A stretch of 6,034 nt of DNA from a virus (lineage: Duplodnaviria > Heunggongvirae > Uroviricota > Caudoviricetes), in IMG/VR virus record IMGVR_UViG_2671180429_000014. The stretch is one strand, 5' to 3'. This document shows positions 1 to 5,377 of this stretch, piece after piece. The position numbers were made by a program, and so were the translations under genes. Every line of letters starts with the position of its first letter. Position 1 is the stretch's first letter. The notes beneath the pieces are model-generated. The model was not told the DNA's origin. It searched no databases and was given only the letters and a program-made list of their open reading frames with translations.

Positions 1-289
1 TCGCAACCGCATCATTCACCGCCTGCTGCAGTACATCCGGATCATAATCACGACCATCACGCGGTACCGGAATGGTCCCCACAGCGTCATCCACCATCGC
101 CTGCAGAACCGGATGTACCTCATCCACCGTCACATGCTTCTGTAATACCGCCGACAGGGAAGCCAGTTTCTCTTCAAACGCTTGTGCCTGCGCGGCCATC
201 TTCCCCTCAAATGTGCGCTGTAAATCCGCCAGCACCGTGGAGAATTCTTCGCCCAGTGCACGAATAATGGACAGTTCCCGTTCCGTCAT
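1..289 (-). CDS. Hypothetical phage protein, N-terminal 96 codons only (continues past window start); function unknown
   Basis: Manual translation of the reverse complement from ATG at 289..287 is open for 96 codons to the window edge (MTERELSIIRALGEEFSTVLADLQRTFEGKMAAQAQAFEEKLASLSAVLQKHVTVDEVHPVLQAMVDDAVGTIPVPRDGRDYDPDVLQQAVNDAVA...). Its ATG overlaps the portal stop as ATGA (plus 286..289 = tcat). Not in the ORF track, presumably because it has no stop inside the window. I do not recognise the sequence. Confidence 0.5.
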   Translation of the reverse strand, partial: MTERELSIIRALGEEFSTVLADLQRTFEGKMAAQAQAFEEKLASLSAVLQKHVTVDEVHPVLQAMVDDAVGTIPVPRDGRDYDPDVLQQAVNDAVA

Positions 290-1503
290 TTTCTCAGTAT
301 CCCCCTGAACATCGCTTTCACTGCATCATGCTCTGTTTCACTGATTGCCTTATTACCGTCAGATGCGCCGTCAGGCAGTTGTGCTGAAACTGTTTTCCCG
401 GCCGACGCGAACGGGTCCTCACGGGCATCACGACGGGACAGCGCCTCCAGACTGTAGTTCTGCTGCTGAAGATACAGTGCATCACCACCGGCAAGGGGCG
501 GCAGGTTCTCACGTTTACGGGCCTCATTGGGCGTGAGAAGCGTATTTTTCACTGATTCACCCAGTGTTTTCATGCGCCGTTCGCTGTCCATTCTCAGCAG
601 CGTGGTGACGTCAAACTCCGTGCTCTCGTTTTCCCCCGTTTCCAGCGCCTCATCCAGTAACAGCTCAATGGACTCAATCAGCGTCTGCAGACACTGGGAA
701 TAATACTGCTGCTCCAGCGCCTCCACGTTGTCACTGGAAGGCGGGTGGCCAACGCCAATCTTGTAGGCCGGGACACGGAACACCGAACAGACAATTTCAG
801 CNNNNNNNNNNNNNNNNNNNNNNNNNNNNNNNNNNNNNNNNNNNNNNCCGCCATTTCTGAAAAAATACGTCGAATTTGCCTGAATATGATGCCCCTGCAT
901 GGCGGCCAGTCCTGCGGCATACACCGGCGGCAGCCCCACAAGCGGATGAAAAAAACAGTTAAAACGGTCGTGGATCACCTCCCGGGCAGGCACCGTCACC
1001 GACTCTGTGATCCCACAGTTCCGGTCCGGCGTGATGCGGTAGAACACGTCGCCGTCATCCGCCACCAGAGGTTCAACCCGGTTCCAGTCCAGAATACGCA
1101 GTTCTTTGATCTGCCCCCGGGGGTTGCGGATTTTCAGCACCACCGTATTGCCGTGACGCAATTTGGAATTCAGCCACAGTTCAAAAAACTGGATGCGATT
1201 CTGCTGCGCATTAGGACGACGACAGAGACGGGCAGTATCTCCCTGCCGCTTTTCCCGGCGTATTCCCTGTACATCAGTCTGCATCAGGCGAAGCCGCATT
1301 TTGGCGATATCCTGGGATATCAGCGAAATGCATGAAAACACCGCGTGAAAGGACAAAACGGTTTCCGGATCGGCTTTCACACCCTGCTGCCAGGCACCGG
1401 CAAAAGGCTCAGCCACCGCCTGAAACAGGGACCGCCAGCCCACTTCTCTTACGTCACGTCCTGATTTCTGGTTTTTTCGGGTTCGCCGCAAAAGGTTCCA
1501 CAT
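286..1503 (-). CDS. Phage portal protein, HK97-like family; reading frame interrupted by a 46-nt N run
   Basis: 405-codon ORF with ATG start at 1503 and an in-frame stop 5 codons upstream, so no longer N-terminus is possible. GGAG sits 8 nt upstream of the ATG. Motifs typical of HK97-type portals: SFHAVFSCISLISQ near the N-terminus, EIVCSVFRVPAYKIG, and C-terminal LTPNEARKRENLPPLAGGD. Recognition is from memory of the family. Confidence 0.85.
   Translation of the reverse strand: MWNLLRRTRKNQKSGRDVREVGWRSLFQAVAEPFAGAWQQGVKADPETVLSFHAVFSCISLISQDIAKMRLRLMQTDVQGIRREKRQGDTARLCRRPNAQQNRIQFFELWLNSKLRHGNTVVLKIRNPRGQIKELRILDWNRVEPLVADDGDVFYRITPDRNCGITESVTVPAREVIHDRFNCFFHPLVGLPPVYAAGLAAMQGHHIQANSTYFFRNGXXXXXXXXXXXXXXXXAEIVCSVFRVPAYKIGVGHPPSSDNVEALEQQYYSQCLQTLIESIELLLDEALETGENESTEFDVTTLLRMDSERRMKTLGESVKNTLLTPNEARKRENLPPLAGGDALYLQQQNYSLEALSRRDAREDPFASAGKTVSAQLPDGASDGNKAISETEHDAVKAMFRGILRK
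802..847. other. Run of 46 N (assembly gap or masked bases) inside the portal gene
   Basis: Directly visible: c at 801, n at 802..847, ccg at 848..850. The X residues in the ORF track come from this run. Confidence 0.99.
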
Positions 1504-1678
1504 TCGCCATGCTCCGCATCACGTTTCTTTTTCTGACCTGCCGGACGTCGCGCTGTGATGTACTCCGCCTTCCCCAGGCGAACCAGCACCTCCGCACACG
1601 GCTGTGCCACATCACGGATATCCCCGGCCCGGGCATCATGCGTGCCCTGCAGATACTGGATTTTTGCCATCTGTTACT

Positions 1679-1700
1679 GCGGGAAGCTCGCGCCTCCCGC
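1679..1700 (-). other. RNA stem-loop in the capsid-portal spacer (9-bp stem including one G-U pair, GNRA-type loop GCGA); no U-tract follows
   Basis: Minus-sense sequence 5'-GCGGGAGGC GCGA GCUUCCCGC-3' (reverse complement of plus 1679..1700), beginning 15 nt after the capsid-gene stop TGA (1717..1715). Followed by AGUAACAG, so it is not a canonical intrinsic terminator. Confidence 0.4.
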
Positions 1701-1714
1701 CCTCCTCATCAGAC

Positions 1715-3652
1715 TCAGCCACCGGACGCAGTTCCGTAGTTCACACCGGTGATCACCGCCACTGCCGCGGTACGGCGACGACGCCAGTTGATCCAGCGCT
1801 CCGCACGGATGGCCACGCTGCCGGTCTGAAACATGGAGACCAGTTCCACCGGTGACGGTGTGCTGCTGTCGCTGGTCGGTTCAGACTGCATCTCCAGTGA
1901 CGCTTCACGGGACATATCCACCGCCACACCGCCGTCATCAGCCAGATAAATATCCGGTGCATTCACCAGTACCAGCTGGTCACCCACATACTGGGAGACA
2001 ATCACCGGCAGCCCCTGGAAGGTCCCGCCCAGCAAGGTCATGTCCGGATATTCCTTCTGACCCAGCGCATTTTTACGCATGGACAGCGCCAGGGCATTGG
2101 TGCTGGACATCAGCCAGACCGCACCGGTGGGCTGCAGATTTGCCGTCACAAACTGGCCAAACGCGGCCTCGGCATCCGCATCCGGGTTACCGGTTGATGC
2201 CGTGCCCTTCACATCATGGGTGATGGACGCCGGGGAGACATCCGCCACCGCCGCTTTTTTCGGGTCCACAAAGTCTGTGTCCAGACGCGCCACCACCGCT
2301 TCCGCCAGCGCATTACGGACCAGTGCATCAGCAGCCGGACTGGAAAAACGGATCAATTCTTCCGTCAGTACCGCAATGGCCGACACTTTCGCATGACTGA
2401 AGGTGATGGATTCAAAATCAAACTTCGTCAGGGGTCTGGCCTTACCCTCACCCACCCAGCCGGCAGCACCACCGGACACCTGGGCATGCACGCGGATATT
2501 GAACGGCACCTGACGAAGTGCAGGGATCCCGCCCTGACCAAATCGCCCGATAATGGTCTGCGGACGCAGGTAATCAATAAAGTCCTGCGCATATTCCTGG
2601 TATTCAGACAGGCTGCCTGCCCACTGCGGGTCCGTGGTGGTCCCTGCCCCCACCGCCGATTTCAGGACATGATGCAGACGGCTGTCATCCGGATACTGAC
2701 GACGGGCCACTTCCAGGGCTTCAGAGCGGACACCTTTAGCCGCGGCCAGTGATTTGGCAAAGCGGGCGAAACCAATCCCCTTCTCCAGTTTCTGCTCAAC
2801 ACGGATCACCGGCGCTGAAGCCACCGTGGCCACATTCCCGTTACCGGCCTGTTTCACCGGCTGTGCCGTGGCGGCCTTACTGGTTTCCAGTTCACGCAGA
2901 CGCTTCAGGTGCGCATCCACCTGACGGATTTCCGCTGCGGTGTTGTCGTAGTGCTCTTCCTCTTCCACATCCAGTGTGCGGCCTTCCTCTGCGGCTTTGT
3001 TCATGATCTCCTCAAGGGAGGCTGCCAGCGCCGCACGCTTGTTTTCAAAACTTTTAATCTGTTCACCAGTATTCATTGCTGACTTTTCCTTATGAAAAGA
3101 GGTTATTGACTGTGCCGAAGCGCCGGCAGAAGATGCGATTTTCACCACCGGTTTCCGGTTGCCGGACGCGGCAGAAAACGGGCGGTCGAAATATTTAATG
3201 GTCCGGATGGTGCATTCCGCATTCGCGGGCACGGTGACGGCAGACACCTCCATCAGCTCCCAGCGCAGAAAATGCAGTCCGCCTCCGTCCAGATAAGTGT
3301 ATTCATGGGGCCGGAAGCCCACAGAAAGCCCCCTGACCAGCCCGGTCTTAATGGCAGCCCAGGCCTCATCCAGCCGGGCTGCCATCTGGGAGGGCATCCC
3401 CGGCTCCGGCTTCACCAGCATTGCCGTGATTTCCAGCCCTTCCCTGACCCGACGCACCGTACACTGGCCTACAGGGCGGGAATGGTCATGCTGCCAGAGA
3501 AACGGGATCGTACTGCCAAACTCCGCCCCCTCCGGCTCCAGGATGTCACCATCCCGATCCGGAGAAGGCGTTGACGCAATCCCGGTGATCACCCGTTCAT
3601 CCTCACTGAAGGATTTCACCGTCAGCAGGGAACAGGCCCGTTTAAGAGTCAC
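1715..3652 (-). CDS. Fusion ORF: HK97-type prohead protease domain (about residues 1-157), Ala/Ser-rich linker, coiled-coil scaffold-like segment, major capsid domain (about residues 260-645)
   Basis: 645-codon ORF starting at GTG (3652..3650) with AGGAGG (3663..3658) 5 nt upstream. The N-terminal region carries the His and Ser motifs I associate with HK97 gp4-type proteases (LWQHDHSRPVG and RGLSVGFRP) and the PANAECT segment. Residues about 193-260 are Glu/Lys/Ala-rich and predicted coiled-coil (EQIKSFENKRAALAASLEEIMNKAAEEG...LKRLRELE), resembling a capsid delta domain. The C-terminal 385 residues are assigned as major capsid by size, position and context; this part is inference (about 0.7). 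Confidence 0.82.
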   Translation of the reverse strand: MTLKRACSLLTVKSFSEDERVITGIASTPSPDRDGDILEPEGAEFGSTIPFLWQHDHSRPVGQCTVRRVREGLEITAMLVKPEPGMPSQMAARLDEAWAAIKTGLVRGLSVGFRPHEYTYLDGGGLHFLRWELMEVSAVTVPANAECTIRTIKYFDRPFSAASGNRKPVVKIASSAGASAQSITSFHKEKSAMNTGEQIKSFENKRAALAASLEEIMNKAAEEGRTLDVEEEEHYDNTAAEIRQVDAHLKRLRELETSKAATAQPVKQAGNGNVATVASAPVIRVEQKLEKGIGFARFAKSLAAAKGVRSEALEVARRQYPDDSRLHHVLKSAVGAGTTTDPQWAGSLSEYQEYAQDFIDYLRPQTIIGRFGQGGIPALRQVPFNIRVHAQVSGGAAGWVGEGKARPLTKFDFESITFSHAKVSAIAVLTEELIRFSSPAADALVRNALAEAVVARLDTDFVDPKKAAVADVSPASITHDVKGTASTGNPDADAEAAFGQFVTANLQPTGAVWLMSSTNALALSMRKNALGQKEYPDMTLLGGTFQGLPVIVSQYVGDQLVLVNAPDIYLADDGGVAVDMSREASLEMQSEPTSDSSTPSPVELVSMFQTGSVAIRAERWINWRRRRTAAVAVITGVNYGTASGG

Positions 3653-3657
3653 ATCAG

Positions 3658-3663
3658 CCTCCT
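3658..3663 (-). promoter_or_regulatory. Shine-Dalgarno AGGAGG for the protease-capsid ORF
   Basis: Minus-sense ...UUUUUUUAUUUUC AGGAGG CUGAU GUG; 5-nt spacer to the GTG start, immediately preceded by a U-rich tract. Confidence 0.6.
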
Positions 3664-3664
3664 G

Positions 3665-3690
3665 AAAATAAAAAAACCGCCGCAGCGGTT
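3665..3690 (-). terminator. Candidate rho-independent terminator (weak) between large terminase and capsid gene, minus orientation only
   Basis: Minus-sense 5'-AACCGC UGCG GCGGUU-3' (plus 3675..3690; 6-bp stem with 4 G-C pairs, 4-nt loop) running into UUUUUUUAUUUU (plus 3665..3676). Lies 25 nt after the terL stop (3718..3716). On the plus strand the hairpin is followed by catgatgg, not a T-tract. Confidence 0.45.
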
Positions 3691-3715
3691 CATGATGGTT
3701 ACAGGGTGAGCAGGG

Positions 3716-5377
3716 TTATATGAAAAAAACCTCATACGCTTTCTTTTTCGGTTCCGGATTCAGGGACATCAGGGACACCGCATTGAAGAGCGCCATCAGC
3801 GGGTCAATTTTTCCCCGTCCGCTGGCCTGTTTGGTGATAAGAATGGCGTTACCTTTAGGCTCCACCCGGGCATTACCGACACACCAGGCCATCAGGGGCT
3901 GATCACCGTGAATCAGCACCCCTTCAGCCAGTTTGCGCTCGGTGGTTTTGATGGCCCCGCCCAGCTTCCAGCCCTGGCTTATCCCCACCACACTCTCATC
4001 GGGGATCCCGGCTTCCGCCAGTGAATCCAGAATCTGCCCCACACCTGACGGGTCAATACCGATATGATCCAGTAACTCAGCCTCATGAATACGACGCACA
4101 TACTCCGCCACTTCCGCCGTGTCATCCCCGACCCGACGGACAATCGTCATGTCTCCACAGGCCACAAAATCCTGAAACCGGGATGCCTCACTCTTCCGTC
4201 TGACCACCGCGGTTTCATGCACCCAGGCATGGCCCCAGCCCAGCCATTCGCGGGTTTCCCTGTCACGGCCAGTCACGTACATTCCCAGCAGATCATCCAG
4301 GCCCCCGCCGTCAATCCCCACCGTCACCACATCAGCGCGCTGCAGGATATCGTCCAGGCTGACGCGCCTGCCCTGCTGCTCCCAGAAATCCGCGCCCGCC
4401 CAGCGGTCAGAACGCAGGGCAAGACCGATTTCCACATTGGCGTGTTTTGACATGAAGCCACGAAATGCTTCCTCACCAGCCTCCCGGGCTTTACGGTACT
4501 CCCGGTACAGAAAGGCCTCATCCACCGAATAACCGAGATTCGGGTTAACCATGGCGAGGTTTTCCATCAGCAGGTGAGCCCCGCTTTCCACCATTTCAGG
4601 AGGATGCTCAAAAATCACCGGCAGAAAGTGCGGATCATGAATTTTGCCGTCACGGACATCCCGGGCATACTGCAGTTTCTGTCTGAACACCCCGGCGGGC
4701 GGTTCATTCGACTGGGTGGTCGTATACACCACAAACCCTTCCGGACGGGAGGCAAGCCCGCCGATGGCTTCACGTAGCATGTCTTCCGCCTTGTACTGCT
4801 TGCCAAACAGCCACAGTTCATCAATCAGTGTCCCCACGGACTTGATACCGGACACCGTATTCGGATCGGCTGCCACCACCTTCAGGGTGGTGTCCGTCAC
4901 CCGATGGGTGATGGTCCGGATATGTGTCTGCACCTGACAGAGGTCATCCAGATCATCGTCCCGTCGTACCATATCCCTGGCAGGGTTGAAGGCGTTAGCC
5001 GCCACCTCCACGGTCGGGGCCAGAATGGTGTAGCCCGCCGCCTGCCGCCAGTTCAGTAACAGCGCCGTCATCATGATCCCCGCAGCCAGCGTGGACTTAC
5101 TGTTTTTCTTGGGGATAAGGATAAACACTTCCTTGATATGGCGAACACCGGTCTGCGCATCGTAGGAGCCAAACAGGGCCGCCACCAGGTCAAACACCCA
5201 CGGTGCACAGGACTCCCCGAATGTCGGGCTACCCGGTGCATCCACAATTCGCAGTTGTTTAAAAATCGCCAGTGCATGTGCAGCCTGGTCCGGATAAATC
5301 GGAGCCGGAATAATCGACAGCCCCTTTTTCAGGCGCTCTGCCCAGTCCGGGCAGGCCGTGCTCCACACAGGTATCAT
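3716..5377 (-). CDS. terL: Terminase large subunit (lambda/HK97-like Terminase_1-type ATPase-nuclease)
   Basis: 553-codon ORF with ATG at 5377 and GAGG 7 nt upstream. Walker A-like ILIPKKNSKSTLAAG near residues 85-100, LKVVAADPNTVSG and DELWLFGK segments, and C-terminal nuclease-region motif GKIDPLMALFNAVSLM, all typical of this terminase family as I recall it. Start overlaps the terS stop as ATGA (plus 5374..5377 = tcat). Confidence 0.9.
   Translation of the reverse strand: MIPVWSTACPDWAERLKKGLSIIPAPIYPDQAAHALAIFKQLRIVDAPGSPTFGESCAPWVFDLVAALFGSYDAQTGVRHIKEVFILIPKKNSKSTLAAGIMMTALLLNWRQAAGYTILAPTVEVAANAFNPARDMVRRDDDLDDLCQVQTHIRTITHRVTDTTLKVVAADPNTVSGIKSVGTLIDELWLFGKQYKAEDMLREAIGGLASRPEGFVVYTTTQSNEPPAGVFRQKLQYARDVRDGKIHDPHFLPVIFEHPPEMVESGAHLLMENLAMVNPNLGYSVDEAFLYREYRKAREAGEEAFRGFMSKHANVEIGLALRSDRWAGADFWEQQGRRVSLDDILQRADVVTVGIDGGGLDDLLGMYVTGRDRETREWLGWGHAWVHETAVVRRKSEASRFQDFVACGDMTIVRRVGDDTAEVAEYVRRIHEAELLDHIGIDPSGVGQILDSLAEAGIPDESVVGISQGWKLGGAIKTTERKLAEGVLIHGDQPLMAWCVGNARVEPKGNAILITKQASGRGKIDPLMALFNAVSLMSLNPEPKKKAYEVFFI

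Follow-up and report, generated by a model that had tools for sequence, protein, structure and literature searches.

A post-capsid hairpin as a candidate split ribosome-binding site in Shiga-toxin-type prophages of Escherichia coli

Background

Stable hairpins mark the junctions between cistrons in several well-known operons: the malE-malF REP element and the puf operon provide intercistronic hairpins that stabilise parts of polycistronic mRNAs, and in phage T7 the terminator T-phi follows the capsid gene 10. Weak phage terminators have been described as a means of balancing expression (PMC9163698). A hairpin can also act in translation initiation, as in the split ("accommodated") ribosome-binding sites of phage T4 (Nivinskas et al. 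1999; Malys & Nivinskas 2009, both as summarised in PMC3014915). According to that summary, the hairpin cuts the spacing between the Shine-Dalgarno (SD) sequence and the AUG from 22 nt to 5 in gene 38 and from 27 nt to 11 in gene 25, destabilising it lowers translation of both genes, and only close relatives share the arrangement (PMC3014915).

We describe here a junction directly downstream of the capsid gene of a lambdoid prophage that shares features with each of these systems. As in T4 genes 38 and 25, the linear distance from SD to AUG is too long (30 nt, versus 22 and 27 nt in T4), the whole of a stable hairpin falls inside it, and looping the hairpin out leaves a spacing in the 5-11 nt range, namely 8 nt. 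Like its T4 counterparts, the element lies between two cistrons of a late structural operon, and is kept in close relatives and absent from distant ones. Unlike them, it belongs to an unrelated lineage with an HK97-type head, its hairpin also fills the slot of a post-capsid terminator, with a U-tract in relatives, and the enhancement of translation known from experiment in T4 is a prediction here. The resemblance to post-capsid terminators such as T-phi lies in the position directly 3' of the most abundantly needed structural gene, in the GC-rich stem with an extra-stable tetraloop and in the U-tracts of relatives; the copy studied here differs in having no U-tract, so that it cannot be an intrinsic terminator, and in being embedded in the initiation region of the next gene. 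With the malE-malF and puf hairpins it shares the placement of a stable stem-loop, a potential barrier to 3' exonucleases, between a presumably highly expressed upstream cistron and less expressed downstream ones, although, unlike the malE-malF element, it is not a REP sequence. A search of the literature for a description of this junction element returned none, and it is best placed among known kinds, as a candidate split ribosome-binding site built on a post-capsid hairpin.

Genomic context of the junction

The window (the whole stretch of 6,034 nucleotides that was analysed) has all of its genes on the minus strand:

5937-5374, minus strand: small terminase
5377-3716, minus strand: large terminase
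1715..3652, minus strand: prohead protease-major capsid fusion of 645 aa (open reading frame list; Pfam Peptidase_S78 and Phage_capsid)
1717-1715, minus strand: TGA stop codon of the protease-capsid fusion
1449..1670, minus strand: small conserved gene of 73 aa, 51-58 aa in other genera (open reading frame list, RefSeq, phrog_829, coding signature)
1503-1501, minus strand: ATG start of the portal gene, with its own GGAG at 1515-1512, within the small open reading frame
286..1503, minus strand: portal, first open reading frame (Pfam Phage_portal, E = 1e-51; phrog_2271)
1-289, minus strand: second portal-like open reading frame, beginning at 289

The protease-capsid fusion matches phrog_617 (E = 4e-259), and database records name it major capsid protein. 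Positions 1300-1900 are 100% identical to prophages of EHEC O26 and O157 and equally to Stx1a-, Stx2a- and Stx2c-converting phages of the genus Sawaravirus; the source is an E. coli Shiga-toxin-type, lambdoid prophage with an HK97-type head. Of 5426 complete E. coli genomes, 1244 carry the junction, with as many as seven copies in one genome. Judging from the phage type, the operon is presumably under lambdoid late antitermination.

Several side observations concern the neighbouring genes. An HNH endonuclease gene, which is usual next to the small terminase of HK97-type cos phages, lies directly upstream of that gene in the parent prophages (9429-9601 in L001; 9427-9601 in L002). The portal is encoded by two open reading frames with an ATGA stop/start overlap at 286-289, annotated by RefSeq as a single "frameshifted" portal pseudogene and by phage records as two portal proteins at the ATGA overlap, and the phrog_2271 profile has 859 positions; this may represent either a genuine two-gene arrangement or a recoding site. 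The same region is found in the parent loci as follows:

L001, 2120-4704: portal region
L002, 2120-3343 and 3340-4704: portal as two parts

A run of Ns at 802-847 lies inside the first portal frame, which is 405 aa long in the window and 454 aa in an identical phage record, indicating that the masked stretch is not true to length. Further upstream in the operon, the junction between the large terminase and the capsid gene (3653-3715, minus strand) holds a terminator-like hairpin at 3691-3674 (GAACCGC-UGCG-GCGGUUU followed by a U-run), then AGGAGG, and then the GTG start of the capsid gene. Its order, hairpin then SD, is the opposite of that found downstream of the capsid gene in the same operon.

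A small conserved gene between capsid and portal

The first-pass annotation had read the region downstream of the capsid gene as an unusually long, 211-nt spacer with the portal as the next gene. Both statements have to be abandoned, since the ATG at 1670 opens the 73-aa frame listed above: a conserved small gene stands between capsid and portal, and the true non-coding gap is 44 nt (1671-1714). The frame is an annotated coding sequence in RefSeq and in phage records (WP_001063025.1, YP_009909089.1), matches phrog_829, annotated as hypothetical, with E = 8e-39, and has homologues, every one of them named hypothetical, both within many Enterobacterales and outside that order. Differences across genera fall on the three codon positions as 2566/1878/4309, and all 21 of the homologues compared keep the frame open, the other two frames holding 28 and 68 stops. 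It is thus a real, conserved gene that must be translated, and it would be wrong to regard the capsid-portal gap as non-coding.

In Salmonella, Enterobacter, Citrobacter and other Enterobacteriaceae outside E. coli, the stop codon of the small gene overlaps the portal ATG in the form T[AG]ATG. The ancestral stop (TAA or TGA) in this overlap reads GAA in E. coli (1505-1503, minus strand), by which the frame gains 18 codons that run into the portal gene in another frame; the overlap with the portal start amounts to 55 nt.

The conserved part of the small protein comprises about 38 N-terminal residues and is followed by a basic tail. Searches with it against Pfam, PDB sequences and profiles recovered no family. 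An AlphaFold model (pLDDT ~80 over residues 1-40) adopts a beta-beta-alpha-beta fold, whose best PDB matches are N-domains of the ribosomal protein bL9 (rmsd 1.0-1.5 Å over 39 residues), at weak Foldseek E-values of 0.06 and worse; its viral matches are uncharacterised or DUF7210 proteins. The tail varies among homologues: in Marinobacter an E3_binding (PSBD) domain stands in its place, and in Snodgrassella alvi (L110, ~4590-4950) it is expanded to a long (A/G)D-dipeptide repeat, the protein being 121 aa long versus 67 aa in a sister strain. An apparent 56% homologue (P0051) turned out to be a frameshifted E. coli copy and no distant relative.

Architecture of the 44-nt junction

In mRNA sense, with the hairpin in parentheses and the two flanking codons included, the junction reads UGA GUCUGAU GAGGAGG (GCGGGAGGC GCGA GCUUCCCGC) AGUAACAG AUG. 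Its elements are:

1701..1707, minus strand: SD sequence GAGGAGG, 7 nt past the capsid stop and abutting the 5' foot of the hairpin
1679..1700, minus strand: RNA hairpin, with 5' arm GCGGGAGGC (1700-1692), loop GCGA (1691-1688) and 3' arm GCUUCCCGC (1687-1679)
1671..1678, minus strand: 8-nt spacer AGUAACAG between hairpin and AUG, with neither an SD nor a U-tract

The hairpin had been recognised in the first-pass annotation as a 9-bp stem with a GCGA loop, beginning 15 nt past the capsid stop and lacking a U-tract, and both refolding and a terminator scan agree with this description. The stem, which includes one G·U pair and carries a GNRA loop, has an energy of about -17.6 kcal/mol and ranks second in stability among the 30-nt local folds of the minus strand of the window. 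It occupies the place expected of an intercistronic 3' stabiliser, on the 3' side of the cistron presumed to be more abundant. It is the core of the minimum-free-energy fold, with pair probabilities of ~1.0, and its 61-nt context folds at -24.7 kcal/mol (z = -3.35; none of 200 shuffles as stable). The G·U pairs form only on the minus strand, which points to a structure at the RNA level.

Several identities for the hairpin were considered and set aside. A DNA-level palindrome was rejected, as the G·U pairs favour sense-strand RNA. An intrinsic (Rho-independent) terminator has the required GC-rich hairpin in the window, but the sequence 3' of it reads AGUAACAG, with no U-tract, and the terminator scan made no call at the site. 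RNase III sites need about two helical turns (~20 bp), and with a stem of only 9 bp that has no conserved extension, processing of the RNase III type is unlikely. The boxB of lambdoid nut sites has a 5-bp stem with a GNRA-like pentaloop and an adjoining boxA in an early operon, against 9 bp, a variable tetraloop and a late structural operon here. A REP sequence and a plus-strand terminator were likewise rejected, and Rfam covariance models searched against 1449-1760 at E up to 1 gave no match.

The position of the hairpin relative to the start signals of the small gene points to a role that the first-pass annotation had left out of consideration, for it lies between the only SD of that gene and its AUG, which suggests a role in translation initiation. 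GAGGAGG forms an anti-SD duplex of -10.6 kcal/mol and is unpaired in the predicted ensemble (P = 0.9-0.99), versus an anti-SD energy of +0.6 kcal/mol for the spacer between hairpin and AUG, so that no SD is found in the canonical window of this start codon. An in-frame UAA in the spacer, two codons upstream, leaves the AUG at 1670 as the only possible start. A split site is expected to have an SD more than ~15 nt from the start codon, a stable hairpin wholly between the two whose removal leaves ~5-11 nt, no other SD in the canonical window and no other start, and an arrangement that is conserved with its helix maintained. Here the linear distance is 30 nt and falls to 8 nt with the 22-nt hairpin looped out, a second SD or start is lacking, and the arrangement recurs with its helix in 59 distinct junctions (see below).

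A further predicted pairing concerns GUCUG, just after the capsid stop (1710-1714), and CAGAU (1669-1673), both on the minus strand. This helix covers the A and U of the small-gene AUG (unpaired P = 0.02-0.13). In the fold model it would hinder initiation rather than help it, but ribosomes finishing the capsid gene would melt it. It was discarded as a feature of the element, being broken in a common E. coli variant and absent from other genera.

Variation within E. coli

A BLAST survey of the junction in E. coli gave 82 loci, which collapse to 20 sequence variants. The main alternative type has the form (A/G)AGGAGG (ACGGGAGGC GUGC GCCUCCCGU) AACAGGUU AUG, in which the closing pair changes from G-C to A-U and the seventh pair from G·U to G-C; two hybrid copies carry G·U intermediates at the closing pair. 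Besides GCGA, the loops GUGC, GUGU and GCUA occur, and a variant whose stem is interrupted carries GAGA. Among the variant types, one has a G·G or G·A mismatch inside the stem and one is two base pairs short. The order and spacing of SD, hairpin, 8 nt and AUG is constant across these variants. The GNRA cap emphasised in the first-pass annotation is accordingly present in the window as GCGA, but it is not a conserved feature within E. coli, where other copies carry other loops.

Two junction classes among relatives

Relatives were collected as 29 loci via the capsid protein, with one genome per species, and extended by 49 IMG/VR loci found via the small protein and by Salmonella phage FSL SP-016. 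All relatives with an intergenic gap behind the capsid gene, from E. coli to the alphaproteobacteria, have a GC-rich hairpin directly after the capsid stop. In the 22 loci of ~7 kb that were ranked, it takes rank 1 to 5 among all 30-nt windows of its locus, and rank 1 in 11 of them. The pairing of the stem-loop, whose absence from homologous regions had been named as grounds for refutation, is therefore conserved. Distant relatives have stems of unrelated sequence at the same position.

Upstream of homologous small open reading frames we found 68 distinct junction sequences, which fall into two classes. Class I, with 59 sequences, includes E. coli, Salmonella, Enterobacter, Buttiauxella, Kluyvera, Citrobacter, Phytobacter, Atlantibacter, Kosakonia, Entomohabitans, Pantoea, Erwinia and others, as well as related IMG/VR contigs. 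All 59 have an SD-like motif 5' of the hairpin (GGAG, GAGG or AGGA in 58, GGGG in one), situated 0-5 nt 5' of the conserved stem core; in Pantoea and Erwinia it often overlaps the capsid stop as UAAGGAG. The stretch from stem core to AUG is 7-12 nt (7-8 nt in Enterobacteriaceae) and holds no usable SD, and the linear distance from SD to AUG is 24-32 nt in 58 of these junctions. The sequence between capsid stop and SD is not conserved, but the abutment of SD and hairpin is. Several class I relatives keep a run of U5-U7 up to the AUG (e.g. L119 and L136).

Class II consists of eight distinct junctions (Rouxiella/Serratia, Snodgrassella and two IMG/VR types) and that of the Marinobacter homologue. 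These have no SD upstream of the hairpin, which often combines a UUCG loop with a U-tract. The SD lies instead between hairpin and AUG, in a spacer of 14-20 nt in those junctions for which its length was determined. Alphaproteobacterial loci, in which the downstream open reading frames are not homologous, have the same appearance, with spacers of 12-28 nt. The side on which the SD lies and the spacer length therefore co-vary, a 5' SD going with a short spacer in class I and a 3' SD with a long one in class II. The combination of hairpin and U-tract that marks a terminator occurs in the relatives L136, L119, L109 and L095, as would suit an element that acts where the capsid message ends.

Conservation and covariation of the helix

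Since a MAFFT alignment misplaced the 3' arm of E. coli, we used an anchor-based alignment and a covariance model instead. In the former, the anchored pairs all form in the 59 class I junctions, with the following compositions:

Pair 1: G-C 54, A-U 3, G·U 2 (59 class I junctions)
Pair 2: C-G 57, U-A 2 (59 class I junctions)
Pairs 3-5: invariant G-C (59 class I junctions)
Pair 6: G-C 49, A-U 10 (59 class I junctions)
Pair 7: A-U 23, G-C 7, G·U 7, C-G 1 (class I junctions)

Changes on both sides thus occur at pairs 1, 2, 6 and 7, and are few and phylogenetically clustered. The seed of the covariance model held two trimmed, non-native rows, included so as to tolerate A-U at pair 6, and only native hits were counted; at E up to 10 the search also returned reverse-strand matches of near-palindromic stems, which were left out of the counts. 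The only match of the model in 250 kb of loci is the junction hairpin. Among the 26 distinct rows of its alignment, five of seven pairs never vary, and one pair has a both-sided change in 5 cells, a value reached by none of 500 shuffles. More than 10 genera share a near-invariant GCGGGG/CCCCGC core, in contrast to its flanks and to third codon positions, which diverge. Extra-stable tetraloops predominate in the 59 class I junctions, with GAAA in 28, GCGA in 4, GAGA in 2 and UUCG in 4, counts that are not independent because the sequences are related. Of the earlier proposal that the stem-loop be examined for conservation with compensatory changes, the conservation of pairing is borne out, but compensatory changes are few: covariation in the alignable core is thin, with few independent events, even though none of the variants does away with the helix.

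Weighing the explanations

Our leading explanation, which we hold with evenly balanced confidence, places the hairpin in a split ribosome-binding site like those of T4 genes 38 and 25, the stem-loop itself being a present or former terminator or 3' stabiliser of the capsid message. GAGGAGG would serve as the SD of the small-gene AUG, and looping out of the folded 22-nt hairpin would bring it to a functional distance of ~8 nt. By position, the hairpin is equivalent to the terminator-like post-capsid hairpin of the relatives, but the window copy has lost the U-tract, so that termination is no longer possible there. It may still block 3' exonucleases, favouring the capsid message, which is plausible alongside a function in initiation. 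The reading frame of the small gene runs up to or into the portal start, and the hairpin may thereby also set portal translation indirectly. In Erwinia and Pantoea the fit is looser: removal of the GC core by itself leaves an SD-AUG spacing of 11-14 nt, unless weak outer pairs are counted, and there the SD, being rich in purines, could alternatively join the U-rich tail to form the lower stem of an ordinary terminator. AU-rich spacers could support initiation without an SD, and the small gene might instead be translated by re-initiation after termination on the capsid gene.

A possible but more doubtful alternative limits the hairpin to the protection of the capsid message. This is the stabiliser proposed in the first-pass annotation, an idea that is plausible but incomplete. 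As a decayed intrinsic terminator, the hairpin would block 3'-to-5' exonucleases after cleavage downstream. Capsid mRNA would thereby be kept above that of the small gene and the portal, and the upstream SD would be incidental or serve a re-initiation that does not depend on the hairpin. The presence of a post-capsid hairpin among the one to five most stable folds in every lineage with a gap, whichever side the SD is on, agrees with this, as do the canonical terminator features of many relatives (a UUCG or GAAA loop with a U5-U7 tract), the enrichment of extra-stable tetraloops and the precedent of T-phi. Processing of polycistronic mRNAs to uncouple the genes of an operon is, moreover, well established (PMC3997798). 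Such a role would nevertheless leave unexplained why an SD sits at the 5' foot of the hairpin in 59 junctions that have none near the AUG, and why spacer length tracks the position of the SD; without a U-tract in the window, termination is excluded there. The two roles, at the 3' end and in initiation, are not mutually exclusive.

The opposite effect on translation, in which the hairpin is a negative element that holds down the small gene, and with it the coupled portal, in comparison with the capsid, either as a roadblock or by holding the SD 30 nt from the AUG, strikes us as unlikely. Particles with HK97-type heads need 12 copies of the portal versus several hundred of the capsid protein, the hairpin is very stable (-17.6 kcal/mol), and the AUG is partly paired in the fold model of the window. 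A strong, accessible SD in a fixed and conserved geometry is, however, better explained by use than by avoidance, the portal has a GGAG of its own 8 nt 5' of its ATG, and the T4 precedents of like geometry enhance initiation. Least credible to us is that the hairpin is an operator bound by a protein, for instance the small basic protein encoded just downstream, in autogenous translational control. The near-invariant core and the resemblance of the AlphaFold model, with its basic C-terminal tail, to the rRNA-binding N-domain of bL9 would suit such an operator; the Foldseek E-values are nonetheless weak for a tiny fold, distant relatives with homologous proteins carry unrelated stems, and E. coli copies change stem and loop bases freely. 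The more elaborate version, in which the small protein binds the hairpin to switch the split site on or off and so controls both its own gene and, via the overlapping or abutting stop and start codons, the portal, seems to us similarly improbable.

Conclusions

The junction described here occurs in many Stx1- and Stx2-converting phages, and predictors of start sites and ribosome-binding sites whose search is limited to 5-15 nt ahead of the AUG will score its small gene as lacking an SD. Should the split site prove real, the solution known from T4 genes 38 and 25 would have been reached independently by a second phage lineage. The relatives would then provide a natural series, with the SD placed before a terminator-like hairpin in some members and after it in others, and such a series would be useful for understanding how terminators and initiation regions share the compact operons of phages.
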